Virus record (IMG/VR): IMGVR_UViG_3300040957_000063
Direction: 5' to 3' (one strand)
DNA: 64,000 nucleotides
Origin: an uncultured virus (IMG/VR IMGVR_UViG_3300040957_000063)
Taxonomy: Duplodnaviria; Heunggongvirae; Uroviricota; Caudoviricetes
The position numbers were made by a program, and so were the translations under genes. Of this stretch, positions 2,923 through 62,351 are shown one piece after another. The notes under the pieces were generated by a model that did not search any database, was not told the DNA's origin, and was given only the letters and a program-made list of their open reading frames with translations. The stretch's first letter is position 1; each line of letters begins with the position of its first letter.

Positions 2923-3117
2923 ATGTTTAGCACAATTGGAATATGGCTCATGGTAGCAATGGTAACATTCTCGGCATTGGCAAACCTCTATGACGCTGGC
3001 AAATACAGCAACCCCAACAGCAAAGACAAAGTTCAAAAGGCTAAGGATGTGAGAAACGCTTCTGCAACATCTTTTGTTTTCGGCGTTATCGTTCTGGCTA
3101 TTGTATTTCTCCTATAA
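2923..3117 (+). CDS. small two-TM membrane protein
   Basis: Two hydrophobic segments; upstream TATA. Confidence 0.6.
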   Translation: MFSTIGIWLMVAMVTFSALANLYDAGKYSNPNSKDKVQKAKDVRNASATSFVFGVIVLAIVFLL

Positions 3118-3241
3118 ACCCAGAACAACCCCCCTTATTTTTCCTAAACATTTTTTGTTAATTGCCTAAGTTTTCCCTATATCAATTTTTGTTAATGTCA
3201 CAAGACGGTGCACAGGCAAGACCCAAACCACGGTTTTTTAA

Positions 3242-3673
3242 TCAGTTGCTTAATTTGAAATGAGGACGAACTTTCTTGTCTTTCAAAAATCGGTGATGCA
3301 AAAATCCGTGACAACTTGAACATAAAGTTATGGCTATTAACGGCGAATAACTAATTTCATGACAAAGTAAATGTTCAGTTGAACCACAAACTTCGCATTT
3401 ATCTCCTATTTTAAAGAATCCGTTCGCATTTTGCTGTCGTTCTGCTAATGCTCTAAGTTTTGCTTCTCTTTCAGTCTCAAGAGGTTGTATTTGCCATTTT
3501 GAAATGTGACTCTTATAATAAACTTTGTTCTTTTCTTTTTTTGAGGTAATATTAGCAAGATAGAAACTTCGATTACAACAGGCTCTTGAACAATATTTTT
3601 GAGGCGTTTTCCGTCTTAGATTTGGATTTGGAGCGAATTCCTTACCGCATTCAGGATTTTGACAGATTAGCAT
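3242..3673 (-). CDS. zinc-finger/HNH-like endonuclease
   Basis: CQNPEC..YCSRAC N-terminus; CEVCG..LLCHE..LCSSCH C-terminus. Confidence 0.7.
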   Translation of the reverse strand: MLICQNPECGKEFAPNPNLRRKTPQKYCSRACCNRSFYLANITSKKEKNKVYYKSHISKWQIQPLETEREAKLRALAERQQNANGFFKIGDKCEVCGSTEHLLCHEISYSPLIAITLCSSCHGFLHHRFLKDKKVRPHFKLSN

Positions 3674-3806
3674 ACCTTATCACTATTTGTTTACTGATTA
3701 ACATACTTATAAGTCTTTCTATTCAGTTTATCATTTATTGTTAACGTAACTGAGCATGTTGGATTCACCGATAGATTTATATATTTGTTTAGCATAGTAG
3801 TACATT

Positions 3807-3864
3807 GGGGATTGGGCGAATAATTTTTGTTCATATCGTTCCCTCATTCGCCCTTCCCCCTTTT
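3807..3864 (+). ncRNA. candidate hairpin sRNA-1 with anti-leader loop
   Basis: TATA near 3776; stem GGGGATTGGGCGAAT/ATTCGCCCTTCCCC; 24-nt loop ending GTTCCCTC; followed by TTTT. Confidence 0.6.
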
Positions 3865-4116
3865 GAGTAACTTAACAAAAACTGTTTATTCGCTAAGTTG
3901 GCTCACCGATAAGTTAATTATTCATTAATTAACTGTGTAGCTTAGAGCATGACCCCATAACCAAACCCCAATACCCCTATAAACTAACCTAACCATAAGA
4001 CATAAATAGTAAAACTGTATATTATAATTGAGGAATAAAAAATACCTAATTATTATACACCACAATATCGCCAAGCCCATAAGGAACAACTTAATAGGGC
4101 ACAGAAGAAATATCTT

Positions 4117-4809
4117 ATGAGTCACCCAGAAATGAGGGAATATTTCAAAAACTATTCCCAACAAAATAAGGAACATCTTAGAGAATTAACTAAAATATGG
4201 ATTAAAATACACCCAGAAAAAGTAAAAGAATATAGAAAAAAATCTTATAAACCTCATCCACGACAAAAACGATTTACCCCAGAAGAACTTAAACAACATA
4301 GAAAAGAATATCTTTATCGCCCCGAAGTGAAACAACATAATAAAGAGCGAAAAAAACAATGGATATTAGATAATCCAGAAGAGTATAGAACGCGAAAAAA
4401 GAAACAAGACTATAAACGGCGTGGTTTAGGTAATAATTGCCTTAATGCACGATTCGAAGGCTCACATGGGCATCATGTTAATTATAACGATGTTATATAT
4501 ATTCCAGAATCCCTTCACAATTCAGTTTTACATAGTGTTTGGTCTGGCGAAGGTATGATTGAGATAAACGTTAAAGTTCGCCAATGGTTAATCGAACAAA
4601 ATAATCCTATCCAATTTGAGTATGTTTATATTAACAACCCAATATTAACTATAAGAAAACGTGGCAGACCACTAAAGGCTAATCCTAAATGTGGAACAAA
4701 GAAACAAAAGTATATGCAAGAGCGTTATCAACAACGGAAACAATTAACTAAACCTATCTATCCCTTAGCAGTATATAACCCTATTAGAATATTAGCGATA
4801 TACCCATAA
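4117..4809 (+). CDS. HNH-family endonuclease with AT-hook-like C-terminus
   Basis: GSHGHHVN..VIYIPESLHNSVLH; RKRGRP; paralog of 5247 ORF. Confidence 0.7.
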   Translation: MSHPEMREYFKNYSQQNKEHLRELTKIWIKIHPEKVKEYRKKSYKPHPRQKRFTPEELKQHRKEYLYRPEVKQHNKERKKQWILDNPEEYRTRKKKQDYKRRGLGNNCLNARFEGSHGHHVNYNDVIYIPESLHNSVLHSVWSGEGMIEINVKVRQWLIEQNNPIQFEYVYINNPILTIRKRGRPLKANPKCGTKKQKYMQERYQQRKQLTKPIYPLAVYNPIRILAIYP

Positions 4810-5134
4810 ACTAATCAATAAAGCAAAAATTATATATATGTTCTTTTAAATTAATCTAAATATAGATGTCAGAACGGAGTCTTTGTGTCTTTAAAGATGC
4901 ATATAAAAAATACTCTCTATTGATTTACTTTGTAAACTCGGTGTAAAAAGTACACCGACTTATTAAATACCACTAAGTTGTTAGGATATACTCGGTTACT
5001 TGTGCCTAACGAGACTTTTTAATCTACTGATTAACTAACTGCTATTGAACGGCTAACAATATACAATATGACACGCGGAATAAATGAGGATGTTGGTTAT
5101 GCCATAAGACTTATATAGTTGAATGAGATAGTAA

Positions 5135-5207
5135 GTTACGGGGACAGGGGAAGGTTTTTTAGTTTCTCGCGTCCAATTCGTTCCCTCAAATTCCTCTGTC
5201 CCCTAAC
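5135..5207 (+). ncRNA. candidate hairpin sRNA-2 with two anti-leader motifs
   Basis: TATA near 5110; 13-bp stem GGGGACAGGGGAA/TTCCTCTGTCCCC; loop contains TCTCGCGTCC and CGTTCCCTCAAA. Confidence 0.65.
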
Positions 5208-5246
5208 GTAATATTTAAATACTTGAGGGTACTATTATAATAAATA

Positions 5247-5627
5247 GTGTATTTAATGCTCGACAGAAAAGAATATATGAAAAATTATAAGAAAAATTAC
5301 CGTAAAACTCATAGAGAACAGATTTTAGAATATTATAATTCAGTAAGAAAATCAATTGATAAAAAATATCGGTCATCCCTCAAAGGAAAAAAGACAAATG
5401 AAAAGCATAAAGCTAAACATCGAAAATTAGGTTTTATTCCGTTGAATGAGCCGTTTCCTAACTCTGAGGCACATCATATAGATTTAGAATATGTTATTCA
5501 TATCCCTTATGAACTTCATCATTCTGTTCCTCATAATATTTGGACGGGACAAAATATGGAATTAATAAACAACAAAGTTTTCGAGTGGCTACAATTAGAC
5601 GTTAACACAATTTGTTTAGCTCTTTAA
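5247..5627 (+). CDS. HNH-family endonuclease
   Basis: SEAHHID..VIHIPYELHHSVPH. Confidence 0.7.
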   Translation: MYLMLDRKEYMKNYKKNYRKTHREQILEYYNSVRKSIDKKYRSSLKGKKTNEKHKAKHRKLGFIPLNEPFPNSEAHHIDLEYVIHIPYELHHSVPHNIWTGQNMELINNKVFEWLQLDVNTICLAL

Positions 5628-7037
5628 GCAAGACAACTAACTAACTAACTCCCTATAACTCCCCCTCATATAGGTAAAAAGTGGAGTGTTTGAATCTTTA
5701 AACTCGTATAGAAAAAATCATATCTATTAGAATATTAATTGGTCTGTTATAACGACTACGACTTTATATAAACGTGTTTATACTTATTGGCTGTTATTTA
5801 TACTATTGAGCCAATATTATAACAGACTCCCCTACCCCTTTACTTCCATTTAGCCGACTAAACCCTGTTAATGAAAAGACGTATTTGTGCACTTACTTAT
5901 CATACTGCCCAACCACACGTACCGCAAACGAAAAGTTAATCAGTTGGTTAATTGACGCTCGGAACGCTCGGAAACGTGCGGACACGAACGGAAAAGCCCA
6001 AAATCAAAACTGACGGAAAAAACGCCTATGTACCACTTATAACATACCCGATTTGCTCGCCTATATAAGCCTTTCGGTTTCGGGTTGCTTATTAACGTTT
6101 CGGGAAAGCCTTATATACCTGACCAAAAATGTACAGTTATTTAAACCTTTAGATACGCTTAAATACAAGAGCTAACCCCCTTTATATACCCGAAATGGGC
6201 ACAGCTATTTAAACCTTTGCCTTCCTTCATTCGTGACCCTATATAAAGAGGACGGGCTGGTTGCTTATAAACCTTTGCCCAGAACCAACATACTCAATTT
6301 AGCCCTATTTCGTTAACTATTCGGACAACACGAAAACACTTCGAAAAACATATGGTCAATTTCGAAAACAACCAATTCCCGAATCGCCCTAACGGTGCCC
6401 CGTTTGACAAATCGGGGCTAAACGATGCCCAGAAACCGAAAAAAAGTCCGTGATTCGAGTTCGTATTTTCTCGAAGGTATATAAACCTTTCTATAGCAAT
6501 AAGCCCAATTCGAAGCCCTTTTGTCAATACGAGCCAGCGTTGAACCGAACGAGCCAAATCCAGCCAGCCCCAACATTCGAAGTACCCCCGAATGGCAACT
6601 ACAGGTCAGCGATTGACAAAACGACTTCATTTTGGACTCCGTTCGGGGGACTTGGGCATGGGCAAAACTTTCGAAGCCCCGTGGAAACTTAGCGATTTTT
6701 GCGAATTAATCAATTGGTTAACTGTTCCCGTCCCAGAACAAAGTTTATTAAGGACGGTGCTATTAGTCTCTTATTGGAGTGTGAAATAAAAATGAGCAAA
6801 AAACAAAGCGAAAACATGGATTTAATCTCTGAGCTAATCTTAGAGAATCACCCGAGCTACATCTATAAAGCCTATCATGGAGAGTATTAATCATGAATCC
6901 TCTTAAGTTCTATCTCGGTGCTATACTTGGATTCTCTGCTTGTGGTATCGTGTGCTATTACCTCTATCTCTATTTCTTACAATACAGTTATCAATATTTA
7001 ACGGTGGTGAAATAAAACGGCAATATATGAATGGTAC

Positions 7038-7337
7038 GTGGTAACAACCAAACATCCGAATGTCTTAGCACTTGAAGAGATTCAACGCGAACTTTGCGAA
7101 AAATTCGGTGGATTAACCATAATTCCGAATTGTAAAGGGATATGGAAAAATCACGCTGGCAACTTAGAATCTGATAAAGTCGAAATATATCGGTGTGTGA
7201 CTAACGAAATAGTTTTACCCTCTGAAGCAATAAGAATCGGCGAATTCATTAATACCATATGCAACCAACAAGAAACTTTAGTCACAGTCAACACAGTACC
7301 GTACCTGATAACCAAACATAGACTAAAACTTTCCTAA
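7038..7337 (+). CDS. hypothetical protein (possible ferredoxin-like fold)
   Basis: FGGLT...GIW...Q.E pattern reminiscent of DUF3574-like proteins. Confidence 0.55.
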   Translation: MVTTKHPNVLALEEIQRELCEKFGGLTIIPNCKGIWKNHAGNLESDKVEIYRCVTNEIVLPSEAIRIGEFINTICNQQETLVTVNTVPYLITKHRLKLS

Positions 7338-7628
7338 ACGCCTCTTTAAACGGCGTAACGAGCGAAACAAGCCCATAACAGGTCACGAACGCTCAAACCC
7401 CTTCGCGTTAAGCGTATTTTACATAGACCCAGACCCGTGGGAAACTTAGCAGAAAAATGCATGTTTATGTAATATAACTTTTCCCGCGTCCCACGGAAGG
7501 CGTTTTTCCTCAAACCATGATTGGCACCGAGCTATATAAAGGTTGTTACTGAATTCGATATATTACAAACAAAAGCAAACCTTTATAAGGGACGCTGATA
7601 TAGTCTGTTTAAGGACGCGAGAACTAAA

Positions 7629-8240
7629 ATGTTGAACCCAGAAACAATCCAAATAAATCGGTATAAAGGCATAGACAATTCAAAAGTTAGCATAGTGCAT
7701 TCTGAGATAGCCACATTAAAAACGTTGGTTTTACTCAATAAAGAAAAAGAGCGCATCACAGCTTATAACAAATTAAACCACGTAGCTATTAAGGGATTCA
7801 GCGCAAACTTTCACAACTATAAGCGAAGTGAAAACAACTTTTCAATTGCAGAAAATTTATTCCGAGAACAATTAGAATTAAACGGAATAACCAATTGGCT
7901 ACATGAACATAAAGTACAAATTAAGGACGCTTTGAATCAAACACACACATATCACTTGGATTTTTTTATCCCTGAGATAAAGCTGGCAATTGAGATTAGC
8001 CCGTTATTTCACTTTACATATGAGACTGTAGCAATCCGAGACAAATTAAGAGAATCATTGTTAAAGCGCAAACTTGGAATTAATACCATTGTTGTTAAGG
8101 TACATTTTAGGACTCGGAAGGGACACATAGAAACCTTTATTAATAACGCCGATACTGTTAAAGCAATAAAGGCGATTAAAAAATTGAGCAAAAAATCAAA
8201 CCCCGAAACACTAACATTCTACACTAAAAAGGTGTGGTGA
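7629..8240 (+). CDS. PD-(D/E)XK nuclease, DUF559/Vsr-like
   Basis: AE..F...YHLDFFIPEIKLAIEI...H...RD pattern. Confidence 0.7.
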   Translation: MLNPETIQINRYKGIDNSKVSIVHSEIATLKTLVLLNKEKERITAYNKLNHVAIKGFSANFHNYKRSENNFSIAENLFREQLELNGITNWLHEHKVQIKDALNQTHTYHLDFFIPEIKLAIEISPLFHFTYETVAIRDKLRESLLKRKLGINTIVVKVHFRTRKGHIETFINNADTVKAIKAIKKLSKKSNPETLTFYTKKVW

Positions 8241-8247
8241 ACTAACT

Positions 8248-8478
8248 ATGGAATATATAGCTAACTGTCCGTGTGGGCACCACACAATCGTTGAAACTGT
8301 AAAAACTATAAAACACGAACCAAACGAACGTAAACCCCAACGTGAGGAAAAATGCGTAGCGTGTGGAAAAGTTAGACGTGTAACAATTATCGGAGAAGTA
8401 GAAAAAGTACCGAACTATGCAATTAGCGCAACCCCTGAGTATGCCACACATAACAGACTATTGTTCAAACTTTGGTAA
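8248..8478 (+). CDS. zinc-ribbon protein
   Basis: CPCG...CVACG; GGTGA RBS. Confidence 0.6.
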   Translation: MEYIANCPCGHHTIVETVKTIKHEPNERKPQREEKCVACGKVRRVTIIGEVEKVPNYAISATPEYATHNRLLFKLW

Positions 8479-8989
8479 ACCGTTTCAACCAATTACAATA
8501 TGCACATAGTAATTGGTAATTTCCCTCTTTATCTTCTAATACTTTTTTTAGAAATTTAGGATTAGTTGTACAATAGAATTGTTTTAGTTCCTCATATCCG
8601 TTATTATTAACGTGGTCTATTTGTAAGCATCTAATATCTAACTTATCTCTGGGAATAAGACAATCTGGGTTAGCACACTTTAAACCATATTTCTCTAAGA
8701 TTTGTTTTCTTAAATCTTGGTACAATTCTTTTCGTTTAGCAATTTTTCTATCTATTTGTGAATGTGTTCTAATACGGGTTTTCTCATAAAGTTTTGAGTT
8801 TGATAACATTTTTTCTTTATTTTGTAAATAATAATTATGACTTTTTATTAAACGTTCTTCTTTATGTTTGTTATAAGATTTTTTAGCCCGTTCTTTTGCC
8901 TCTTTAGGATGTTCTTTATTCCATAGTCTTTTTTTAGCTAAAATTTCTTTTCGGTGAGTATTATAATATCGTTTTTCTTTATCACCCAT
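8465..8989 (-). CDS. HNH endonuclease
   Basis: KCANPDC..CLQIDHVNNNG..YQLLCAYCN. Confidence 0.85.
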   Translation of the reverse strand: MGDKEKRYYNTHRKEILAKKRLWNKEHPKEAKERAKKSYNKHKEERLIKSHNYYLQNKEKMLSNSKLYEKTRIRTHSQIDRKIAKRKELYQDLRKQILEKYGLKCANPDCLIPRDKLDIRCLQIDHVNNNGYEELKQFYCTTNPKFLKKVLEDKEGNYQLLCAYCNWLKRFTKV

Positions 8990-9147
8990 TTTTTAATCAT
9001 CACCACAACGTTTATATAGTAGTTTCTGATATTTAAGTGTTATGGGACGGGAGAAATTTAACCCCGTCCTTTTGATTATATCAATTTTAGGAACAACCTT
9101 TATATAGGAGATTGCTATAACATGTAGATATAGGACGCGAATAAAAA

Positions 9148-9390
9148 ATGTCAACACTTGAGGAAAAAGCTGAAATAGCTCAAAAAAATCTAACCGTGAA
9201 GTTTAAGGCTCTGGCTCTAATCCGTGAAGCATCCGAATTTCTCCTGAGCGCGGAGCAAAAATTAATCGAGGTACAAACATTAGGCGGAGATAATGAAGCT
9301 AAGGAATTCGCGGAAATTCTCTGGCAATCAATTGATAAAGACAGAAAAACCCTCTGCCGTGGAAGATTCGAAGCCGAGGAACTTTGGTAA
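9148..9390 (+). CDS. hypothetical helical protein
   Basis: TATA, GGACGCGA leader, ATG. Confidence 0.65.
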   Translation: MSTLEEKAEIAQKNLTVKFKALALIREASEFLLSAEQKLIEVQTLGGDNEAKEFAEILWQSIDKDRKTLCRGRFEAEELW

Positions 9391-9778
9391 AATTCTTTTC
9401 TTTTGTTTGTCATGTGCGGCGAGGTATATAAACCTTTCGGTGAACTAATTTTTGCCGTGCCCATGTAATATTTCTTTTTTGTTCGCGTCCGAACGGGGCG
9501 GTTTTCCCTCAAATACAGTAATGTCACCGAGGTATATAAACCTTTACCCAAATTGAACCCAGATTAATCAATTGATTAACCACAACACTTATAAGTCTCG
9601 GTGCCTATTAGTCTTTTGAGGGAACGGCGACAACGACACGGGCTATTACATGGACACGCAAGTTGAAAACAGCCTAATATATAAACGTTTCGGTATGGTT
9701 GCGCCGTCCGTGTCTATGTAATATCAGCCACGCAAAAAAAAACGCCCATTTCTGGGCGCATTCGTTAATTCGACCCTT

Positions 9779-9916
9779 TTACGCGGGTTCGGTGTCGTAT
9801 CCGCCGCATTTTGGGCATTTTATTTCTATTGTGTTGTTTGTTATGGTTTTTGCGAATTTCGCGCCGCATTCTATACAAGCCATGCGGATTTTTTGGGTTG
9901 TTTTTTGTCCGTGCAT
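9779..9916 (-). CDS. 45-aa zinc-ribbon protein (not in ORF track)
   Basis: MHGQKTTQKIRMACIECG...IKCPKCGGYDTEPA; TATA and GAGGGAAC leader. Confidence 0.65.
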   Translation of the reverse strand: MHGQKTTQKIRMACIECGAKFAKTITNNTIEIKCPKCGGYDTEPA

Positions 9917-9953
9917 TTTAGTTCCCTCGATATACCATGTGTCAGCGTCCTAT

Positions 9954-10103
9954 TTAAAGGTTTGCCTTCACGAATTCTTTTAAGCTGATTCCGTAGGAAC
10001 CCTTATTTCCGCCCGTTATTTTCCCAGAGTACGGGACACGATGATATTTTTGTTGGAAGGTACCAACAACAGTTTTTATTTTTGTCGCGTTATGTGTGTT
10101 CAA
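9954..10103 (-). CDS. small hypothetical protein (TTG start)
   Basis: TATA near 10140, TTTGAGGGAAACAAA leader, then TTG. Confidence 0.5.
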   Translation of the reverse strand: MNTHNATKIKTVVGTFQQKYHRVPYSGKITGGNKGSYGISLKEFVKANL

Positions 10104-10183
10104 TTTGTTTCCCTCAAAAGAACATGTAGTCAAACAGATATATAAACGTTGTTGTTGAATCCGATATATTGAAAATATGGATT

Positions 10184-10528
10184 TTAAATTAAGGTTTCGG
10201 TTTCCGTTAACGTAAAAAAGGCTATTAAGGTTTCTCGGATTATTGTATTTTTCGCAAAGTTTCCGTTTTTGCAAGATTCGAAATTATAGAATAATCCACG
10301 GTCAAATAAGAAGCTAATTTCACGGTTTAAAATTTTTGTTAAAGTTTCGTGAACGGTTTCGTGGTTAATGGTTTGAATAGTCCTTAAATCGTCCTTATTT
10401 CCCGAACCGAGCGCAATTTCGGCTTCGAATCCAGAAACGTGCTCAAAGGTGCCATAAACGGGCACGTTGGCATCATTCTGTAGCTTATTTATTTCGTATT
10501 GGGTCATAATTCTTATATTATCGGTCAC
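10184..10528 (-). CDS. small HExxH zincin-like protein
   Basis: TINHETVHE; GGACGTGA leader; resembles 28377 ORF. Confidence 0.55.
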   Translation of the reverse strand: MTDNIRIMTQYEINKLQNDANVPVYGTFEHVSGFEAEIALGSGNKDDLRTIQTINHETVHETLTKILNREISFLFDRGLFYNFESCKNGNFAKNTIIRETLIAFFTLTETETLI

Positions 10529-10656
10529 GGTTTCACGTCCTTAAAAGACATGTAGGCACCGACCTATATAAACCTTTGTATTACTGCAAGCATACTCAAT
10601 ATGTAGAAACCTTTATAAGTCTCGCCGACTACATGCTTCTTGAGGGAAAAACAAAA

Positions 10657-10788
10657 ATGTATAAACCAACAAGAATTTACCTAACAGAACGGGAAACATC
10701 CGAGATTGAAAAACTTTATGGACTCTGGGACTTCATAACAGAGAATTTTAACGGTCAAATTTCCGTTATTGTTTGGGAATCTGATTAA
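10657..10788 (+). CDS. small hypothetical protein
   Basis: TATA, then TTGAGGGAAAAACAAAAATG leader. Confidence 0.55.
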   Translation: MYKPTRIYLTERETSEIEKLYGLWDFITENFNGQISVIVWESD

Positions 10789-10955
10789 TTTGAACCCATT
10801 TAAACAACTGATTAAACGGTTTTACCGTTGGCGGTTAAATCAAATTCTCAAGCCGTCTAAAATTCATAAAGTTTTTTCTTTAAGTTTTATCGTTTCCGAC
10901 TTCAGAGTAACCTTTATTAAGGACGCTGACATATAGGTATTTGAGGGAAAGCAAA

Positions 10956-11138
10956 ATGGCAACACAAAAAAAGTTTAAAACTCTGTTCGAATCCCCAAAC
11001 GGGGACGACCCATTAGAACCCGATTGCATATGTTGTGAACATAACGGGAATTGCAAGCACCAACACACAAACCCGTGCAACTTCGACATGCTAATGAACC
11101 AATATGACGAGGTAATGGCTCAATACAAAGGTTTATAA
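10956..11138 (+). CDS. small Cys-rich protein
   Basis: TATA, then TTTGAGGGAAAGCAAAATG; CICCEH..C..C. Confidence 0.6.
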   Translation: MATQKKFKTLFESPNGDDPLEPDCICCEHNGNCKHQHTNPCNFDMLMNQYDEVMAQYKGL

Positions 11139-11407
11139 GCAACCGTGCTATTAGACTAATTAACGAGGTTCCATTTACCAATTAAGAACAACCTTTAAAT
11201 AGTAGTTTGCTATTACTGTATTTCAACCGAGCAAAAAGAATTTGAGGACTTGGAAGGCATCGAGTCAGAAATTTACCCCGAAGAGGACTATTAAAATCCT
11301 CTTTTTCTTTAACTAACTATAACACTGTTATAATATAACGCTGTTATAGCCAATTCACGTTAAGTGCATATTACATGGTAACGCTCATTAGCACTATACC
11401 GCAACAC

Positions 11408-11785
11408 TTATATAGTTGAACGTTTGTTTGCCATAAGTTTCTTGATTAATTCAACCGCTTTATCCAATTCAACCTCAGAATGAAGTGATTTAGCAAATCT
11501 GGTTATATAACTATGGTGTTTTAGGCATAATGGCACAAAATCTTGCCAATTTTCTAAATAATATTTCTCATTTGCATAATGGTTATCAATATAATGCGGT
11601 TTGCCGTTTATTTCGTGAAAGGACAGTCTTTCGTGACTTCCACAGATAATGCACTTATTTCCAATCTTCTTTTTTGATTCTAACCTTATTTCGAGCCGTT
11701 CTTTTTTGATTAAGGCTTTATGCTTTTTGTCTTGTTCTGGGTTGTTTTTATAATAGTTACGATAATATGCGTTTCTATCGAACGT
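11408..11785 (-). CDS. HNH endonuclease with no canonical start codon (ACG start or pseudogene)
   Basis: Open frame TFDRNAYYRNYYK...GNKCIICG..LSFHEING..FVPLCLKHH; TATA and GGTGA upstream. Confidence 0.65.
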   Translation of the reverse strand, partial: TFDRNAYYRNYYKNNPEQDKKHKALIKKERLEIRLESKKKIGNKCIICGSHERLSFHEINGKPHYIDNHYANEKYYLENWQDFVPLCLKHHSYITRFAKSLHSEVELDKAVELIKKLMANKRSTI

Positions 11786-12234
11786 TTGTTTTTCACCATA
11801 ATAAATATATACACACTACTATATAAACATTACGGTTGGCACAATTATGTTTATATACTACAATCATCGTTTGCTTATAAGCCAATAACAAGCCTTATAT
11901 ATATCGACAATTGTTTAGGTATATAAACCTTGTTGTCACGAACTATATAAAGGTATCGTTTTTACACTACTAATTCATTGATACTACTAATTATTTAACT
12001 ATTTTTACTACGAACTTCGAACAAATCCACGTATCAACATCGAATACACTATGGACAAACCGCTTCGAACACCGAACGCAAGCCTTATATACTCCCCCGT
12101 ACTTGCTACCCTGACGAAAAAAACCAATAATACCGTCCGCCACCGAACATCGGAACCGCACTTTTATGGATGTCCCCCATAGATTTTGCCCTGAGATGTA
12201 CACTTGATGGATGGATAATGCGGTGTATAAGTGA

Positions 12235-16685: not shown

Positions 16686-16725
16686 ACAGAAAGGTTTAAA
16701 TAGTAGAACAAATACTATATATAGT

Positions 16726-16879
16726 AGATGGGTAGCGAAACACGGCTGAACGCGCTTGGCTTAAGCGTCATATTAGACCTTGAGGGCGTAGCTAAGAAGT
16801 GCGCTAAACTCAAAAGGTTTCGTACTGAGATACCAAGTACAAGGAAACATTGTGGGTTCAAATCCCACCCCATCTACCA
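16726..16879 (+). tRNA. tRNA-Leu(TAA) with 66-nt BHB intron (16766-16831)
   Basis: Cloverleaf with CCA; intron at 37/38; CTTA/TGAG helix with two 3-nt bulges. Confidence 0.9.
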
Positions 16880-18621: not shown

Positions 18622-18786
18622 GGTGAGTTGGCAGAGTCAGGTTTAATGCACCAGACTTGAATCAGTTCGCTCAAGGGTGAAACTGCTAAGGGTGAAACTC
18701 GAAGCATGGAATGGAATTTTCCAACCTGACAGAAATCTGGTGACCCTTTCGGGGGTCCGCTGGTTCAAATCCAGCACTCACCGCCA
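18622..18786 (+). tRNA. tRNA-Ser(TGA) with intron (about 18662-18734)
   Basis: Long variable arm; G73; CCA; intron at 37/38 with relaxed BHB. Confidence 0.85.
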
Positions 18787-24230: not shown

Positions 24231-24692
24231 GTGACTGATAGAAAAGAATATATGAAAAATTGGCGTAAGAATCATCCAAATTATAACAAAGAACATTCTC
24301 CAAACTATATGAAGAATTACTATCAAGCTCATAAGAAAGATTTTAATATTAGATGTAAAAAATGGGCTAAAGAGAATCCAGAACGATATAGAGAAAAACA
24401 AAGAAAATCAAATAAAAAATATAAAGAAAAACTAAAAACTGAGATTTTTATACTTTTAGGTAATAAATGTTCTAATACTAATTGTCCTATTCCCCCTGAG
24501 AAAATGGAAAAAGAAGCCCTTCAAATTGACCACATTAATGGTGGCGGTTGTAAAGAGAGGAAGAAAAATGGAAGAAATGATGCGGGATTTTATTTATATG
24601 TTTTAAAAGAAATTCAATCTGGTTCCAAAAATTATCAACTTCTTTGTGCATATTGCAATTGGTTAAAACAATTTAAGAGGGAGAAAATCTAA
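24231..24692 (+). CDS. HNH endonuclease
   Basis: LGNKCSNTNC..LQIDHINGGG..YQLLCAYCN. Confidence 0.85.
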   Translation: MTDRKEYMKNWRKNHPNYNKEHSPNYMKNYYQAHKKDFNIRCKKWAKENPERYREKQRKSNKKYKEKLKTEIFILLGNKCSNTNCPIPPEKMEKEALQIDHINGGGCKERKKNGRNDAGFYLYVLKEIQSGSKNYQLLCAYCNWLKQFKREKI

Positions 24693-26808: not shown

Positions 26809-28383
26809 ATGTTCGATAAAGAAACTGAATTACTTCAGAGTTTCAAAAAGCAAGATGTAAAATCGCAAGAAGACTACAAGAGATGGCGCGAATACTGGAA
26901 AAAAGAAGGTCCAGTAAAGTTCGCATATCAAATTTTAAGAACAGACCCTAATACTGGCGGTCCCCTTCTTTTATCAGATGGTCAAAAAGAATTCTTAGAA
27001 GATTTAGCCTTTCACGGCGTTAGACTCGTAATCATTTCGGCTGGACGAGGCTCAGGCAAAACTTTCGTTCTGGCTGTCTATATTGTATGGAGAATATTCA
27101 CTCACGATATGTATAGCATTTCATGTATGGGTGGCTCACAAGAACAGTCAGATAAAATTGCGTCTTACATTCAAGGTTGGATTAGAAACAACCAAACTTT
27201 AACTAATTATACCCTAAAGAACATTCAAAGAGAAACCAAAACCTTTTCTGAAGGTGAAGCAAAGTTTCACGCTTGCTCAGGAACTTCAGTCAGGGGTCCC
27301 CACACTTACGACTTGATTATAGACGAACAGGCGGCGGGTGAGGAAAAAGGTGGAGAAAAGTATATCAGAGCCGCAATTTGGGACGTTTCAACAAGCCCAG
27401 ACATTCACGTTATCCAAAGTTCTACAGCACACTTTATTCACGGAGATTTCTTGAGAACTTGGAATGATGCTAAACAACTTGGCTATAAAAAGTACCAATG
27501 GGCAATTGCCAAGCATATTAGTGGTGAAACAGACCCATATAAAATTTATCAAGATACTAATCCTCATAACTGGAAGTCAAATGTTCCGTGGATTCCTGAC
27601 CAAAACATTGAAATTCTACGAGCTAAAGAATCAAATGATGAATGGCTCGTTGAAGCTCTCGGTGGCATCAGTATGTCGTCAGGTTTGGTTCTTAACCCAG
27701 CGGACTTTGGCGCGTCAATCTGTAAAGCCGCTTGCGACATATGTGTTCCATATCACGACCCAGAATGCTTAGAATTCGTACAGAGAGTCCTTATGTATGA
27801 AGGAACACCGCTTGAAGATTTACCTCAAAGCACGACTGAAGCCGTCCAAGACTATATTCATAACAGAGTTATGGGAATAGATTGGGGTAGAGGAAGCCCT
27901 ACAGCATTCGTTGTACTCGGTCAATTTAGAGAATGGGTTTTCGTTCTTGAAGCTAAAGAAATTGTAGGATGGACCGACCAAGAGAAATTAGACTATGCGG
28001 TGAGTCTTGCTAATAAATGGCAAGTTGAAGTTATACGCCCTGACCCGCGAGAATGGGCACTTAATGGCTGGCTTGCAGAACGAGTACAGGCTGGTGTCCA
28101 CGAGTTATTCACAGGCGCGGAAGGCGGAAACGAAAAATACAAGTACATTGCCGCTCTCAAGAAGTTTGTTGAACGCCATAAACTTTGCATTCCGAGACAC
28201 GAAGATAATGATGACCTTGTTCGAAGCCTAAAGAACTTGACCTATGACGAAAACGGTAAAATCCGTAAACAGGACGACCACTCGGCAGATGCAATGATTT
28301 ACGCCATTAGCTACTATGATGAAGTAGATAACGGCGGCGTAGGCGGTTCAGAACCAGTTACAGGCGGAACTAATTTATGGTAA
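26809..28383 (+). CDS. terL: terminase large subunit
   Basis: Walker A AGRGSGKT; Walker B LIIDE; nuclease GIDWG and DDHSADA. Confidence 0.9.
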   Translation: MFDKETELLQSFKKQDVKSQEDYKRWREYWKKEGPVKFAYQILRTDPNTGGPLLLSDGQKEFLEDLAFHGVRLVIISAGRGSGKTFVLAVYIVWRIFTHDMYSISCMGGSQEQSDKIASYIQGWIRNNQTLTNYTLKNIQRETKTFSEGEAKFHACSGTSVRGPHTYDLIIDEQAAGEEKGGEKYIRAAIWDVSTSPDIHVIQSSTAHFIHGDFLRTWNDAKQLGYKKYQWAIAKHISGETDPYKIYQDTNPHNWKSNVPWIPDQNIEILRAKESNDEWLVEALGGISMSSGLVLNPADFGASICKAACDICVPYHDPECLEFVQRVLMYEGTPLEDLPQSTTEAVQDYIHNRVMGIDWGRGSPTAFVVLGQFREWVFVLEAKEIVGWTDQEKLDYAVSLANKWQVEVIRPDPREWALNGWLAERVQAGVHELFTGAEGGNEKYKYIAALKKFVERHKLCIPRHEDNDDLVRSLKNLTYDENGKIRKQDDHSADAMIYAISYYDEVDNGGVGGSEPVTGGTNLW

Positions 28384-29810: not shown

Positions 29811-29949
29811 ACTTAATCATCTGATTAATTAATATAACACTTCTTGTATTTAAGTCTTATGGTCAAAAAGTGTTATGAATTTTAACAGAAAACGTTTACA
29901 TAAGATTTAAATAGGAGAACCGTATATAGTATTAATCAGATGATTAAAT

Positions 29950-46616: not shown

Positions 46617-46753
46617 TTTACATCCAGAGCAATATCCACACAGGAGTATATAAGCCTTACGTTTTTTCTGGTAATTTAATCAGGTGATTAAGTGAAAACA
46701 GACCTCAAACGTAACGTTTATATAGGTCGGATGCTATGTTAGTGTAGATAAAA

Positions 46754-49700
46754 ATGCTATACACAGTCTCAGCAACTTATGATTATTCGTTAGAATGCAT
46801 AGTTTTGAAGTTGTACAATGACGAAGCTGGAATGCTTGAGTCTTATTATGACTACCAATTCAAGCCCTTCTTTTACTCTAAAGAGAAGCAAAAGTTTGAG
46901 GGAATAATCAAACAGGAAGAGGTAGAATTGTATGATGCACTCAACGACCAGAAAGTTACCGTATGGAAAATTACCTGTAAAAACCAAGAGGTAATTTCTA
47001 AATTCAATAATAAATCTCCTGAAGTTGTAGCTTGGGAGAATCATATTAAGCCTTATATGCGCTATATCTACGATACTAACACTAAAATGGGGATGCCTTA
47101 TGTTCGAGAAAGTGGGGCACTCGTTTTTAATGGTAGTGCAGAGGCAGAGAAACGAGTTGAAGAACTAACTGACCTTGTTAACCCAGAATCATTCAACAAA
47201 ATTATCTGTGAGCAAATGGCTCGGCTTCTTGAGTATCCAGCACCAATATTTAAGCGAGTTTCCTTAGACATTGAAGTGTGGAGTGAAGGACAGAAGATGC
47301 CAAGTCCAGCCGCCGCTAATTTACCAGTAATTTGTGTTGGAATGATGAGCAATACTGGCGAAAAATACCTTTATGTATTAGTACAAGAAGACAAGCCGTT
47401 TTCGTGTCCTAAAGATGCCAATATTTTCTGGTTTTCGGACGAAGCTGAACTTTTAAGGGCAGTTTTCGCTAAAGGCAATGAGTTTCCGTTTATAGTTACA
47501 TTCAACGGCGATGACTTTGACCTTCCATATCTAATGAATCGAGCACTTAGATTAGGGGTGCCGATGAGTGAAATCCCAATAACTTTCAAAGAGAAAGAGA
47601 AGATTTCCATCTGGAATAATGCGGTCCATATAGACCTATACAAGTTTTTCTCTATCAAATCAATGCAGAACTATGCTTTTCAGCAGAAATACAAGAACAT
47701 TTCTCTTGATGAAATCTCATTGGCGTTAATAAAGAAGGGTAAACTCAAGGGCGACCACGAATGGGTTAATGATATGACCTATGAAGAGCTTCTAACTTAC
47801 TGTTTAAACGATGCTTTACTCACAATGGAACTAACAACTTACAGCGATAACGTAGTAATAAACTTGATTCTTGTCTTAGCCAGACTAAGCTATATGCCTA
47901 TGGAACAAGTCAGCCGAAAGCCTATTTCCCAATGGATTAGGAGCTTCATTTATTACGAGCACGTTAAAAAAAGTATGCTTATTCCGCGCTCTGAAGACAT
48001 TATAGCTATGAAGGGAACAACAACAACTACTGCACTAATCAAGGGTAAAAAGTATAAAGGCGCAATAGTAGTTAATCCTGTAGCTGGATTCCATTTCAAT
48101 GTTAAAGTTGGAGACTTTGCTTCTCTTTATCCATCAATTATTAAAAACTGGAATCTTGGGTATGCAACTGTAAATTGTAAATGTGGAGCTTTATGGAAAC
48201 AAATAATGTTATATACAACCGAAAGAGTTATATACCGTGAATTACATAAATGTTTACGGTGTAATAACCAATGCCAAGTAGAAGAAAAAATGAAACAAAT
48301 GTTGAATATAAACAAAGATGTAAAAAATATTCAGCAAAATGGAGATTTGAACACCCAGAAAAAGCCAAGTCTATTCAACGAGATTCCTATAAAAAGTCAA
48401 TGCTTGACCCAAAAAAACGAAAACGAAAACAACAAAGGGATAAAAAATTTCGTGATGCCAATCCAGAATATGGGAGAAAACGAGCAAGAGAATATGCCAG
48501 AAGAAATAGGGGAAAAATGCGAGATAGATATGAAAGATGGTCAAAATCTAAACGAATTACCTTCTTTAACGCCAGAGGAAACAAATGCGAGAGATGCGGC
48601 TTTAATGACGAACGAGCCTTTGAAATACATCATATCAATGGAAACAAAATACCAAGAGAGGAAAGAAATAATATTACAACACTTGTTACGGAAAATTGGG
48701 ACGAACTGCAATTGTTGTGTGCAAATTGTCACAGAATTGTTCACCGCTTATGAGTGTTATTCTCATAAAGTTGCCAATATGCAACATTGGATTTGCACAA
48801 AAAACAGGGCTGTAGAATCTCAATTGATTGGTGTCCTGAAGGATTTACGTGTCAAGAGCTACAAGAAGAAGGCAAAGGACAAGACTAATCCTCATAAAGC
48901 GTGGTACTCGGTATCAGAACAAGCCATTAAAGTCATTTGCAATGCTTCTTACGGAGTATTCGGAGATGACACATTTGTTCTATATTGTCCACCTATGCCT
49001 GAGTACGTTACAGGAATCGGACGATGGATTATTACTCAGACAATCAAACACGGTCAAGAATTAGGCTTAAACATTATCTACGGCGATACTGATTCTATCT
49101 TCATTAAGAATCCGCCCCAAGAAGTATTAGACGAGCTATTGGCTTGGGCAAAGAAGAATTTTGACATTGACTTCGAACTTGATAAAGAATATCGTTATGC
49201 ATGTCTCAGCGCACGAAAGAAGAATTACTTTGGTGTTCTTAAAGACGGCACAGTTGATGTGAAGGGCTTAACTGGAAAGAAAAAACACACACCAAAAATA
49301 ATTAAATATCCATTTGAAGAGACAAAGAAGTTGCTGGCTCAGGTTAATACCGAAGCTGATATTCTGGTTGCTAAGAAGGCTATATTGAAGCTGGTCAAAA
49401 GCACCTACCTAAAGATTAAGACACGAAACTTCGGGGATATGGAAAACTTAGCGTTCCACGTAACCGCTTCCAAAGATGTCGAGGATTATGACGGCGACCC
49501 ACAACACATTAAAGCGGCAAAGCTACTGAAGGCGGCTGGTCAAGACATCGGCGAGGGGTCAGACATTTCATTTGTTAAAACCAAAGATAAACTGAAGGTT
49601 AAACCAACTAAGTTGGCAAAACCAGACGATATTGACATCACGAAATACAACGAATTCTTAAAAAGCACATTCATACAGATTCTTGAGCCATTAGGTCTTG

Positions 49701-49759
49701 ATTGGGACCACGATATTCTCGGAATCTGTGTGATGGATAGATTCCTTACTTCTGAATAA
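46754..49759 (+). CDS. polB: family B DNA polymerase (crenarchaeal/thaumarchaeal type) with in-frame insert of about 190 aa
   Basis: DIE; FNGDDFD; DFASLYPSII; K...NASYG; YGDTDS; KKNY. Confidence 0.95.
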   Translation: MLYTVSATYDYSLECIVLKLYNDEAGMLESYYDYQFKPFFYSKEKQKFEGIIKQEEVELYDALNDQKVTVWKITCKNQEVISKFNNKSPEVVAWENHIKPYMRYIYDTNTKMGMPYVRESGALVFNGSAEAEKRVEELTDLVNPESFNKIICEQMARLLEYPAPIFKRVSLDIEVWSEGQKMPSPAAANLPVICVGMMSNTGEKYLYVLVQEDKPFSCPKDANIFWFSDEAELLRAVFAKGNEFPFIVTFNGDDFDLPYLMNRALRLGVPMSEIPITFKEKEKISIWNNAVHIDLYKFFSIKSMQNYAFQQKYKNISLDEISLALIKKGKLKGDHEWVNDMTYEELLTYCLNDALLTMELTTYSDNVVINLILVLARLSYMPMEQVSRKPISQWIRSFIYYEHVKKSMLIPRSEDIIAMKGTTTTTALIKGKKYKGAIVVNPVAGFHFNVKVGDFASLYPSIIKNWNLGYATVNCKCGALWKQIMLYTTERVIYRELHKCLRCNNQCQVEEKMKQMLNINKDVKNIQQNGDLNTQKKPSLFNEIPIKSQCLTQKNENENNKGIKNFVMPIQNMGENEQENMPEEIGEKCEIDMKDGQNLNELPSLTPEETNARDAALMTNEPLKYIISMETKYQERKEIILQHLLRKIGTNCNCCVQIVTELFTAYECYSHKVANMQHWICTKNRAVESQLIGVLKDLRVKSYKKKAKDKTNPHKAWYSVSEQAIKVICNASYGVFGDDTFVLYCPPMPEYVTGIGRWIITQTIKHGQELGLNIIYGDTDSIFIKNPPQEVLDELLAWAKKNFDIDFELDKEYRYACLSARKKNYFGVLKDGTVDVKGLTGKKKHTPKIIKYPFEETKKLLAQVNTEADILVAKKAILKLVKSTYLKIKTRNFGDMENLAFHVTASKDVEDYDGDPQHIKAAKLLKAAGQDIGEGSDISFVKTKDKLKVKPTKLAKPDDIDITKYNEFLKSTFIQILEPLGLDWDHDILGICVMDRFLTSE
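48271..48753 (+). CDS. HNH endonuclease nested out of frame inside polB
   Basis: GNKCERCG..FEIHHING..LQLLCANCH; own promoter at 48218-48235. Confidence 0.85.
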   Translation: MPSRRKNETNVEYKQRCKKYSAKWRFEHPEKAKSIQRDSYKKSMLDPKKRKRKQQRDKKFRDANPEYGRKRAREYARRNRGKMRDRYERWSKSKRITFFNARGNKCERCGFNDERAFEIHHINGNKIPREERNNITTLVTENWDELQLLCANCHRIVHRL

Positions 49760-50081
49760 CAAAGATGTGAAGGCAAACAGGGTTATTACATTTCCATACT
49801 GTATAATTATACACATCTTTTTTAAAAATTAGTTTTATATCATCGCTTCCACAATATTTGCACTTTGGTCTCACTTCTGCCATATTGGGTCACTCTTTTA
49901 ATCAGATGATTAATTAGGACCCAGAGTAAAAACTACTATTTAAAACTATCTATAGAAATTAACAAAAAAAAGTTGGGATTAGGATGGACAGGTCGGACAA
50001 ACCGTAACATTTATATATTAGATTATCTATATTTTTCTTTGTGCTTAGGCACATTGGATTGGAATGGATTGAAAAAGGTAG

Positions 50082-50548: not shown

Positions 50549-50920
50549 GTGATTAAAATGCCATATAAAAGTAGCGATAAAAAACGTCAACATCAAAGAG
50601 ATTATGACCGAACACATAGAACCGAAAGGAAGGTATATCTTAAAAATTTAAGATTACGCGCTGTAGCAAAACTTGGTGGTAAATGTGTTAACTGTGGTTG
50701 TGATGATATTAATGCTTTAGAATTTAACCACATTAACGGCGGCGGAAATCAAGAGGGAAAAAAACATAAAGGTAATGGTTGGCGGTCAGCAACATTGTTT
50801 TATGAAATAATATCAGATAAAAGAACTGATATAGACCTTAGATGTAGAGTTTGTAATTCAGTTCATTACTTAGTAAAACTAAAGGGATTAAAAAATAGGT
50901 GGAAAATTATTTACACCTAA
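50549..50920 (+). CDS. HNH endonuclease (NHINGGG subfamily)
   Basis: Shares LGGKCVNCGCDDINALEFNHINGGG with the 17190 ORF. Confidence 0.85.
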   Translation: MIKMPYKSSDKKRQHQRDYDRTHRTERKVYLKNLRLRAVAKLGGKCVNCGCDDINALEFNHINGGGNQEGKKHKGNGWRSATLFYEIISDKRTDIDLRCRVCNSVHYLVKLKGLKNRWKIIYT

Positions 50921-52689
50921 CTTGGGCAAGTGGGACACGTACCATCTTCTTTTACAAGAAGCTGATATTGACGACTGTTATCTCGATAAACTGTTGTGCC
51001 TTTTATTTCAAGTTTCCACGCTTGCATATAGATTGATTCGATGTCGTGAATTGATGCGCCATTGGGTAGGTTTATTGTCTTAGAAACTGCATTGTTAGTG
51101 TACTTTTGGAATGCCGCTTGCATTTTCAAATGCCATTCTGGTGAAATCTCTGCTGATGTCCTTAGAACTTCTTTCATTTCTTTTGGCAGAACCACACAGT
51201 TTTTGCATTGGGTGTCAACAAGAGCTTTTTCAATATCTGGGGTCCAGAGACCTTTAAGCTCAAGCGAACGTTTAACTGAAGGATTAATTTCGACAAGATT
51301 CTTGCCTAAAGTTTCCTCGACATTTCGCCGTTGAACTACAGCAAAAATTGGCTCTATACCTGATGATGCATTAGCAATCAAGCTGATTGTTCCAGTTGGG
51401 GCGATTGTTGTAAGTGTTGCATTACGCATATATGGTTCTTTCTTGAATATGCTTTTGTCTTTGTTAGGGAAGTTTCCTTTCTCTTTGCCTAACGCGATTG
51501 AAACTCGCATAGCGGTTGAGAGCATGGACGACATTATTTTCTGGGAAAGTTCGATTGCCTCATCGCTATCATACTTGATTCCCATAAACATTAAGAGGTC
51601 AGCCCACCCCATTACGCCGAGACCTATTTTACGGTTAGCTATTGTTGCTTCTCGAATTTGTGGAAGAGGGTATTTATTGGCATCTACAACGTCATCTAAG
51701 AATCTAACAGCTATTGCGACTGACTTTTCGAACTTCTCGAAGTCAAAACTAACGTGCCCGTTTTTGTGGATGAATTTGCTAAGGTTCATTGAACCGAGAT
51801 TGCAAGATTCATATGGTAGAAGTGGAGTTTCGCCGCACGGATTAGTAGCTTCTATTTCACCTATCTCTGGTGTTGGATTAGCCTTGTTGATTGTGTCTAA
51901 AAATACAACTGCTGGTTCGCCGTTTTTCCAACTCATCAAGCAGAGAAGATTCCATATAGCTCGTGCTTTTATTGACTTTATTGGTTTGTCGGTTCTGGGG
52001 TTTATAAATTCGAAATCGCCGTCTTTTTCTACTGCCCGCATAAATTGGTCGGTTATTCCAACTGACAAATTAAAGTTGTGCAAAACACCTTCTGTTTCTT
52101 TCGCCATAATGAAGTCCATTATGTCTGGATGGTCCACACGCATAATTCCCATGTTTGCGCCACGCCGTTTGCCACCTTGCTTGATGACTTCGGTTGCGGC
52201 ATCGAACACAGTCATAAATGAGATAGGTCCAGATGCTACGCCGCCAGTTGATTTAACAACATCGGATTTTGGTCGTAGTCTTGAGAAAGAAAAGCCTGTT
52301 CCGCCACCAGATTTGTGTATCCGTGCGGTATAAGCTATAGCCTGAAAGATTTGGTCAATATCGTCTTCAACTGGAAGAACAAAACACGCTGATAGTTGAC
52401 CTAAATTCGTTCCAGCGTTCATTAACGTTGGGGAATTAGGCAAAAACTCAAGTCGAGTCATAATATTGAAGAATTCCTTTTCGGTTTGTTTTACAAATGC
52501 TTTATCTTTGCCATAGTTGTATTCTATTTCGGCAATTGCTTTAGCAACTCGCTTAAACATCTGAGTCGGGGTTTCAATGATTTCCCTGTTCTCGTCACGT
52601 TGTAAGTATCGTTGTTTTAGGATGAACCTCGCGTTTTCAGAGAGATTTAGAGCCTTGTCACTTTGTTTTTGTGGTTTCAAATTAATCAC
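50917..52689 (-). CDS. nrdJ: class II (B12-dependent) ribonucleotide reductase
   Basis: PNSPTLMNAG; LSACF; RRGANMG; TNPCGE; IAPTG; C-terminal CPTC. Confidence 0.92.
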   Translation of the reverse strand: MINLKPQKQSDKALNLSENARFILKQRYLQRDENREIIETPTQMFKRVAKAIAEIEYNYGKDKAFVKQTEKEFFNIMTRLEFLPNSPTLMNAGTNLGQLSACFVLPVEDDIDQIFQAIAYTARIHKSGGGTGFSFSRLRPKSDVVKSTGGVASGPISFMTVFDAATEVIKQGGKRRGANMGIMRVDHPDIMDFIMAKETEGVLHNFNLSVGITDQFMRAVEKDGDFEFINPRTDKPIKSIKARAIWNLLCLMSWKNGEPAVVFLDTINKANPTPEIGEIEATNPCGETPLLPYESCNLGSMNLSKFIHKNGHVSFDFEKFEKSVAIAVRFLDDVVDANKYPLPQIREATIANRKIGLGVMGWADLLMFMGIKYDSDEAIELSQKIMSSMLSTAMRVSIALGKEKGNFPNKDKSIFKKEPYMRNATLTTIAPTGTISLIANASSGIEPIFAVVQRRNVEETLGKNLVEINPSVKRSLELKGLWTPDIEKALVDTQCKNCVVLPKEMKEVLRTSAEISPEWHLKMQAAFQKYTNNAVSKTINLPNGASIHDIESIYMQAWKLEIKGTTVYRDNSRQYQLLVKEDGTCPTCPS

Positions 52690-62214: not shown

Positions 62215-62351
62215 TTTTAATCATCTGATTAACTATAACTACGGTCTCCTATTTAAATCTTTCGTATTACATTATCAAAAATTGTAATACAACCGCCATA
62301 AGATTTATATAGTAGTATGGTGTACTATTACCTAAACAAGGAGACATTAAA

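Follow-up and report, generated by a model that had tools for sequence, protein, structure and literature searches.

Two predicted hairpins in the DNA of an uncultured archaeal-type tailed virus carry large open loops that are complementary, beyond chance, to a set of short leaders in the same genome. The window, by which we mean the whole stretch of 64,000 nucleotides (nt) analysed (IMG/VR record IMGVR_UViG_3300040957_000063), is a piece of this large virus, which comes from peat. Each hairpin begins at the start site predicted from a TATA box of its own, and the leader boxes matched by the loops are restricted to a block of promoter cassettes at 7.4-11.1 kb. The best single reading, which we put forward tentatively, is that the hairpins would be trans-acting antisense RNAs pairing with an address at the very 5' end of their target transcripts.

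Two clamped hairpins and their loops

A first-pass annotation of the window had proposed two promoter-plus-hairpin units, with a G+C-rich clamp around a loop, as small RNAs antisense to variant Shine-Dalgarno leaders of a whole gene block. Both units are real, and consist of the following elements (base pairs, bp):

3776-3783, + strand: TATA box of hairpin unit 1
3807-3859, + strand: hairpin 1; outer clamp GGGGA/UCCCC, inner stem of 8 bp, open loop of 24 nt
3835-3846, + strand: anti-box B in loop 1, the reverse complement of TGAGGGAACG
5110-5117, + strand: TATA box of hairpin unit 2
5140-5203, + strand: hairpin 2; stem of 13 bp, loop about 38 nt long
5155-5190, + strand: complementary part of loop 2, matching in antisense both box A with its spacer (GGACGCGAGAAACTAAAA, 5155-5174) and box B (TTTGAGGGAACG, 5178-5190)

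Hairpin 1 folds at -20.6 kcal/mol (z -3.88) and hairpin 2 at -25.2 kcal/mol (z -3.74), values that none of 200 shuffles equalled in either case. Both persist in context folds of 125-132 nt, with the loops open in the minimum-free-energy structure as well as in the centroid. The clamp word GGGGA begins 24 nt (hairpin 1) and 23 nt (hairpin 2) past the end of the TATA 8-mer, the distance at which transcription is expected to start at archaeal promoters. Moreover, the TATA flanks of both units resemble the ACC-R-TAAGA-TTTAAATA promoter type that precedes genes at 14.9-18.4 kb. The two units are paralogous, with an alignment that begins about 60 nt before the TATA box and takes in the hairpin. The outer GGGGA/UCCCC clamp is the same in both, as is an 11-nt word of the loop; the inner stems pair in each despite their different sequences. 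CTTTT (3860-3864) lies directly 3' of hairpin 1, and 3' of hairpin 2 the TATA box of the next gene begins at 5214.

Two other identities were considered for the hairpins and rejected. One is a C/D-box small RNA. No Rfam covariance model, those of C/D-box, H/ACA and tRNA-like RNAs included, matches at the hairpins: tRNAs alone reach the gathering score in the window, and positions 3000-12000 give no match at E values up to 5. The other, a terminator of the upstream gene, was set aside because hairpin 1, in a divergent intergenic region, comes straight after a TATA box of its own, and hairpin 2 lies 330 nt past the previous stop codon and has no T-run.

Pairing of the loops was assessed over 166 start windows predicted from TATA boxes. 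The site antisense to the loop itself was left out, and each loop was compared with 250 of its dinucleotide shuffles. With a cut-off of -26 kcal/mol or lower, loop 2 has four targets where the shuffles average 0.08; with one of -17 kcal/mol or lower, loop 1 has six where they average 0.51. Neither number was reached in any of the 250 shuffles. A native control used 38-nt stretches at the same offset behind all 167 TATA matches. Here hairpin 2 ranks first of 167, and 159 of the 167 lack any target at or below -26 kcal/mol. The six best targets of loop 2 all fall within 7.5-9.9 kb, namely 7610+ (the gene starting at 7629), three leaders without genes that we call U1, U2 and U3, a further hairpin unit at 9039+, and 9930- (a zinc-ribbon gene). 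The claim that the loops are complementary to a local leader set was borne out, the match exceeding chance. The naming of seven gene leaders as the targets stands in part: it holds for the set as a whole, and four of the seven pair at background strength, so that complementarity exceeds chance for the leader set and not for each of its members.

The likeness between loops and leaders starts at the predicted +1 and extends into the leader, not into the conserved part of the promoter upstream. Complementarity amounts to homology in inverted form, and the loops look like a bipartite U1/U2-type leader copied in reverse, with its layout of box B, spacer, box A and A-rich tail.

The hairpin unit among the six best targets of loop 2 is a third small unit:

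9011-9076, + strand: TATA box, 8-bp hairpin GGGACGGG/CCCGUCC, and TTTT

Its hairpin (-14.1 kcal/mol, z -2.8) has a box-A-like word, GGACGGGAGAAA, as its 5' arm, and pairs with loop 2 at -22.5 kcal/mol. Judged by its layout, the unit would yield an RNA of about 35 nt.

The promoter cassettes and their leader boxes

The block at 7.4-11.1 kb holds at least ten promoter-leader cassettes, a repeated block before small genes as in the promoter-early stem-loop (PeSL) cassettes considered below. Those discussed here are listed with the lengths of their products in amino acids (aa) and with their open reading frames (ORFs):

7400-7550, - strand: U2 cassette with bipartite leader GAGGAAAAAC ... GGACGCGG from 7512; pairing energy with loop 2, -22.9 to -26.3 kcal/mol
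7582-7631, + strand: cassette and box A leader of gene 7629-8240 (203 aa), the best coding target of loop 2 (-28.6 kcal/mol)
9099-9150, + strand: cassette and box A leader of gene 9148-9390 (80 aa)
9395-9550, - strand: U1 cassette with bipartite leader (box B, 13 nt, box A) from 9512
9588-9760, + strand: U3 cassette with leader TTTGAGGGAACG from 9618, then a 15-bp hairpin; the sole ORF behind it has 23 aa
9779-9968, - strand: cassette and box B leader of the zinc-ribbon gene (45 aa, 9916-9779)
9954-10156, - strand: cassette and box B leader of a 49-aa ORF (TTG start 10103)
10184-10582, - strand: cassette of a 114-aa gene (GTG start 10528), with the box A variant GGACGTGA
10612-10788, + strand: cassette and box B leader of a 43-aa gene (10657-10788)
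10912-11138, + strand: cassette and box B leader of a 60-aa cysteine-rich gene (10956-11138)

The cassettes share a TATA box, a CG-rich word just past it, an ACATG-like word near -10 and a box at +1, and they occur in both orientations, frequently as divergent pairs. The box is either box B, GAGGGAA(C), or box A, GGACGCGA(GAAAC); U1 and U2 hold both in tandem. The boxes are non-palindromic, stand in sense orientation behind the TATA box in all ten cassettes, and start 22-26 nt past the end of the TATA 8-mer (22 nt in seven of the ten), a position that coincides with the predicted first transcribed base. Counted from the start of the box, the start codon comes after 12-16 nt in seven cassettes. 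The ORFs of these seven (203, 80, 45, 49, 114, 43 and 60 aa) are all coding by their scores, which are 0.13-0.34 bits per codon and the best of the six frames. At U1, U2 and U3 the first start codon is 32-48 nt off and no credible ORF lies behind it; U1 is antisense to gene 9148-9390, and the ORF behind U1 scores as non-coding.

The seven words that the first-pass annotation had picked out before start codons each occur exactly once and end at the start codon assigned to them. Shuffle tests show the box words to be enriched over background, and the words are restricted to 3.8-11 kb. Seven copies of TTGAGGGAA are present against 0.67 expected, a number that none of 100 shuffles reached; six lie at 5.1-11 kb and one within the polymerase gene. 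GGACGYGA has five copies against 1.21 expected (1 of 100 shuffles), and TGAGGGAACG has three against 0.07 expected, namely both loops in antisense and 9617+. The description of the words as Shine-Dalgarno variants tied to the start codon had to be given up. Since their spacing follows the TATA box (22-26 nt) and such words also head three leaders without a credible ORF, they are better called 5'-terminal leader boxes. That genes elsewhere mostly use GGTGA was roughly right: among the 56 ORFs of at least 120 aa, a GGTGA-type word stands upstream of 13 against 1.7 expected, GAGGG upstream of one and GGACG upstream of one.

A generic initiator element was rejected as an identity for the boxes, because the same core promoters are used without them elsewhere in this virus and in a related virus. 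None of 42 non-self loci, among them L016 with 20 kb more of the same virus, has TTGAGGGAA, and no copy of the cassette lies in the 5.9 kb that precede the window.

The boxes could also be explained at the DNA level, as the +1 part of a repeated cassette that was spread and homogenised by recombination in the manner of PeSL. The loops would then be captured inverted cassette fragments, either functionless or serving as double-stranded DNA sites for a box-binding regulator. We consider this explanation rather unlikely. It would account for the common build of at least ten cassettes, for their two orientations and frequent divergent pairing, for the fixed distance from TATA to box, and for the setting of the array in a region with six or seven endonuclease-like genes. 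It also agrees with the related-virus contigs from four metagenome runs (X19, X21, X23 and X24), which over 3500-11300 align in pieces joined at cassette positions (10924 to 10642, 9509 to 7535, 11202 to 9129 and 6367 to 7578), these being short contigs placed at 80% likeness. One related contig of run X21 carries a hybrid box, TTTGACGCGAAAACCGC. Such joints, as aligned, suggest cassette shuffling among co-occurring relatives. What this explanation leaves unaccounted for is the presence of two G+C-rich clamps of different sequence that both pair, and the start of the clamps exactly at the predicted start of transcription. The likeness, moreover, takes in only what would be transcribed of the cassette, from the predicted +1 on, and the boxes are directional (10 of 10 sense in the cassettes), whereas the clear DNA-level motif of this virus, TTAATC-N3-TGATTAA, is built quite differently, as a palindrome, and has 25 matches on the two strands together where 0.04 are expected. 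For a box-binding protein the only hint is a match of the 45-aa zinc-ribbon protein to the Mu Com zinc ribbon of Pfam, which at 20.5 bits lies below the cut-off of 22.9. An RNA role is favoured on account of the limits of the likeness, the directionality of the boxes and the contrast with the palindrome. It is favoured further because the box copies in the hairpins lie 30-50 nt inside the transcription unit, where they are unable to act as promoter elements, and because they are held in open loops whose clamps start at the predicted +1.

Several other features were seen at the leaders without genes. The predicted transcripts of U1 (9395-9512, - strand), U2 (7395-7512, - strand) and U3 (9618-9760, + strand) each run into the 3' end of a convergent gene, and they share the word ATTACAT-RRR-CA, with four copies at 7473-, 9469-, 9645+ and 9722-. 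U3 folds into its 15-bp hairpin at -41 kcal/mol over 143 nt, and a further promoter at 9690(-) would give an RNA antisense to the 5' end of U3. At 9735-9760, 3' of the 45-aa zinc-ribbon gene, lies a bacterial-style terminator on the - strand (GCGCCCAGAAATGGGCG, then nine T).

The antisense model and the evidence against it

The course of events that we infer, from transcription of the hairpins and the ends of their RNAs to pairing in vivo and the direction of its effect, would be as follows. The + strand of the two paralogous units would be transcribed from their own TATA promoters into small hairpin RNAs, RNA 1 of about 55-60 nt from 3806/3807 and RNA 2 of at least 65 nt from 5140. The G+C-rich clamp would keep the loop of 24 or 38 nt open, and the loop would present the antisense of a 5'-terminal address (box B, box A) that would head about ten transcripts from the local cassette array at 7.4-11.1 kb. 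Pairing would cover the first 8-20 nt of the target RNAs and, in the seven coding targets, everything ahead of the start codon, a leader of 12-16 nt in all. It would block ribosome loading or alter RNA stability, and the set would be regulated jointly. According to a more far-reaching version, which we regard as doubtful, master hairpin RNAs born of an inverted leader duplication would recognise a cassette-written 5' address on accessory mRNAs and on cassette-driven antisense RNAs, so that one class of promoters would silence or stabilise another at the RNA level.

This model should be treated with some caution, since a number of findings weigh against it. Of the best four targets, three (the U1-U3 leaders, which have no genes) are without a nearby start codon, and one is gene 7629. 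For the leaders at 9133+, 10540-, 10642+ and 10943+ the pairing energy does not go beyond -14 to -18 kcal/mol, a range into which shuffled loops often fall; loop 2 has 12 windows at or below -18 against 5.96 expected. Three of the six best targets of loop 1 lie outside the block. The fixed distance from the TATA box suits a promoter element as well as an RNA 5' end. Compared by RNAalifold with automatic alignment, the two hairpins have seven shared pairs and no compensatory one, so that their covariation is anecdotal; the identical 11-nt run in the loops is not significant alone at such an alignment length and identity, by our own estimate. Hairpin 2 is without a T-run and hairpin 1 has TTTT only. 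Finally, no relative with the hairpin-box system was found among the scanned contigs, and same-virus copies have identical hairpins.

These last results come from an alignment scan of metagenome contigs that returned 46 loci, four from the same virus and 42 others lacking the boxes. Locus L002 differs from the window at nine positions, none of them in 3807-3864, and locus L003 at a single one (14217); Logan contigs from runs X24, X23, X21 and X19 cover hairpin 2 identically, and neither hairpin shows a variant in them. Single-protein searches of viral contigs, one with the HNH-like protein and one with the terminase, gave no relatives. A scan of viral contigs for the hairpin pattern gave two matches, both unrelated and in coding sequence of 62% G+C. 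A TATA box combined with a clamp at the start site and a large loop was sought in all loci, and no convincing analogue was seen.

The strand, too, can be questioned. The reverse strands fold about equally (-22.4 and -23.0 kcal/mol), and folding therefore does not indicate the strand. The equal folding also fits an arrangement in which the loop sequences would themselves be sense leaders on the - strand. Under such an arrangement GAGGGAACGATATG in hairpin 1 would open a 47-aa ORF (3834-3691), which is present and whose leader word resembles those of the block, and hairpin 2 has the palindromic TTTAAATA upstream of its box at the spacing seen in cassettes, the TATA box at 5214-5221 setting the box at the usual distance when read on the - strand. 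We find this arrangement highly improbable. Hairpin 1 has no TATA-like word at cassette distance upstream of its box, and the 47-aa ORF traverses two promoters and scores -0.02 bits per codon against 0.13-0.34 in the real small genes. Furthermore, the frame at hairpin 2 closes after five codons, and the flank of the 5214 TATA box matches the promoter type of the + strand.

The remaining difficulty for the antisense model lies in the company that the hairpins keep. Six or seven endonuclease-like genes lie in the region of the cassette array, and those of HNH or homing-endonuclease type in the window are:

1178-1600, - strand: HNH/homing-endonuclease-like gene
3242-3673, - strand: HNH/homing-endonuclease-like gene
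4117-4809, + strand: HNH-type endonuclease-like gene (230 aa), downstream of hairpin 1
5256-5627, + strand: paralogous HNH-type gene, downstream of hairpin 2, with its own TATA box at 5214-5221
7629-8240, + strand: HNH/homing-endonuclease-like gene
8465-8989, - strand: HNH/homing-endonuclease-like gene
24231-24692, + strand: HNH/homing-endonuclease-like gene

The model does not explain why both hairpin units (2 of 2) are associated with HNH genes, whose products are 44% identical over 71 aa; a single old duplication of a hairpin-plus-gene segment would explain it. The association could instead mean that the hairpins are the 5' parts of longer HNH mRNAs, which they would control or stabilise in cis, the likeness to the block being secondary. 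In favour of such a cis leader, both hairpins lie upstream of the paralogous genes on the same strand, hairpin 2 has no terminator and ends 52 nt from the start at 5256, and endonuclease genes are dense in the region. There is also precedent in the hairpins that sequester the ribosome binding site (RBS) in the leaders of the T-even phage homing endonuclease genes I-TevI, mobE and segB (PMC3014915). What these cases share with the window is the placing of a hairpin ahead of HNH or homing endonuclease genes, within a phage region rich in endonuclease genes. The likeness ends where the HNH start regions here lie outside the hairpins, 257 nt (hairpin 1) and 52 nt (hairpin 2) past their ends, and where each gene has its own TATA box between hairpin and start. 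The TTTT 3' of hairpin 1 also speaks against a cis leader, and the excess complementarity to the block would be left unexplained. Furthermore, no such hairpin was found at the third paralog of the window (24231-24692), at the paralog in L016 or in more distant relatives. We therefore think a cis leader improbable.

Some further observations concern the endonuclease genes themselves. Several of them have an N-terminal basic repeat of the Y..NPEK..K.Y type, and the HNH-like family is multi-copy in related contigs, with, for example, three copies in one contig of 97.6 kb (L018, L027 and L036). Closer homologues of the HNH protein (P0002-P0006) show 59-75% identity. The frame of gene 4117-4809 continues upstream (4020-4117) with amino-acid likeness to the homologue P0003 (KIPNYYTPQYR...), and is closed by an in-frame TAA near 4040 with no canonical start between this TAA and 4117; from its frame, the start of the gene may be truncated or unusual. 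In a distant relative (L014, 1498-1556), some 75 nt before the HNH paralog, there is a hairpin with a G+C clamp, a loop of 31 nt and a T5 tail, on a contig too short for seeking matching leaders.

Known systems and the rest of the window

Bacterial small RNAs with C-rich loops pair with G-rich ribosome binding sites. In Methanosarcina mazei, sRNA162 is a trans-acting small RNA that masks start sites, as described in PMC3510493 and in the review PMC4152357. The hairpins have in common with both an unpaired C-rich stretch complementary to the G-rich leaders of several mRNAs. They differ in being encoded by an archaeal tailed virus and known from sequence alone, in having as target an extreme 5' end that is set by a promoter cassette, in the very large bipartite loop (24-38 nt), and in counting non-coding transcripts among their best targets. 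Phage-encoded small antisense RNAs are represented by c4 of phages P1 and P7, sar of P22 and OOP of lambda. In these, loops pair with two short leader words and so close the RBS, much as is proposed here; unlike the hairpins, they act on one operon of a bacterial phage, c4 being processed from the same transcript, whereas two stand-alone units and about ten dispersed targets are found here.

The mobile regulatory cassettes of T4-type phages, PeSL, offer a likeness to the array, in a hyperplastic region where small ORFan genes each stand behind the same promoter-leader cassette (PMC2839356, PMC4122927). Stem-loops with G/C tracts are a further point of resemblance, and the joints at cassette positions in related contigs may be another. 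In PeSL the stem-loop is a terminator that precedes the promoter, and its loop has no antisense relation to the leaders; the hairpins here follow a different type of promoter and bear the mirror image of the leader, and the cassettes of the block have no stem-loop terminator immediately upstream of their promoter.

A search of open-access full text gave no account of an antisense RNA regulator that acts in trans and is encoded by an archaeal virus. To our knowledge, gene regulation in these viruses is known almost wholly at the level of transcription factors. If the antisense model is true, archaeal viruses use multi-target antisense RNAs and a promoter cassette doubles as an RNA address. The system is small, the two predicted RNAs measuring 55-75 nt and the leaders 12-16 nt, and being compact and easily tested it could serve the study of RNA-RNA control and of short-leader initiation in archaea. 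If instead recombination of cassettes explains the boxes, the locus is a clear archaeal counterpart of the PeSL shuffling regions of T4-type phages.

The same DNA is present in 24 peat or wetland metagenome runs, none of which (0 of 24) is on record as RNA, and the longest assemblies of this virus reach about 145 kb. A megablast search with 3000-12000 against deposited phage records gave no match. Beyond the block, the window holds the following genes:

26809-28383: terminase large subunit
46754-49759: family B DNA polymerase
50917-52689, - strand: ribonucleotide reductase
54971-55708: FKBP26-type isomerase

The FKBP26 gene is closest to those of TACK-group archaea (42-43% identity), and 14-15 tRNA genes lie at 17-23 kb. 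Almost every gene of the window is preceded by a BRE/TATA-like word (BRE, transcription factor B recognition element) of the TTTATATA or TTTAAATA type.

The palindrome TTAATC-N3-TGATTAA occupies about 15 sites in the window, among them:

465-480, 1732-1747, 5019-5034, 9564-9579, 29813-29828, 29932-29947, 46676-46691, 49898-49913 and 62217-62232: TTAATC-N3-TGATTAA

It often stands immediately 5' of a start codon (...GATGATTAAAAATG) or amid divergent promoters, and it recurs in leaders of L006 and L016. From its placement it could be the operator of a dimeric regulator, or a small leader hairpin containing the ribosome word GGTGA/GATGA. Two other structured stretches were seen on the + strand: at 16721-16812, upstream of a tRNA-Met gene, a promoter-proximal stretch of 84 nt folds at -26 kcal/mol, and at 18622-18783 Rfam gives a 162-nt tRNA match for which an intron would be needed.

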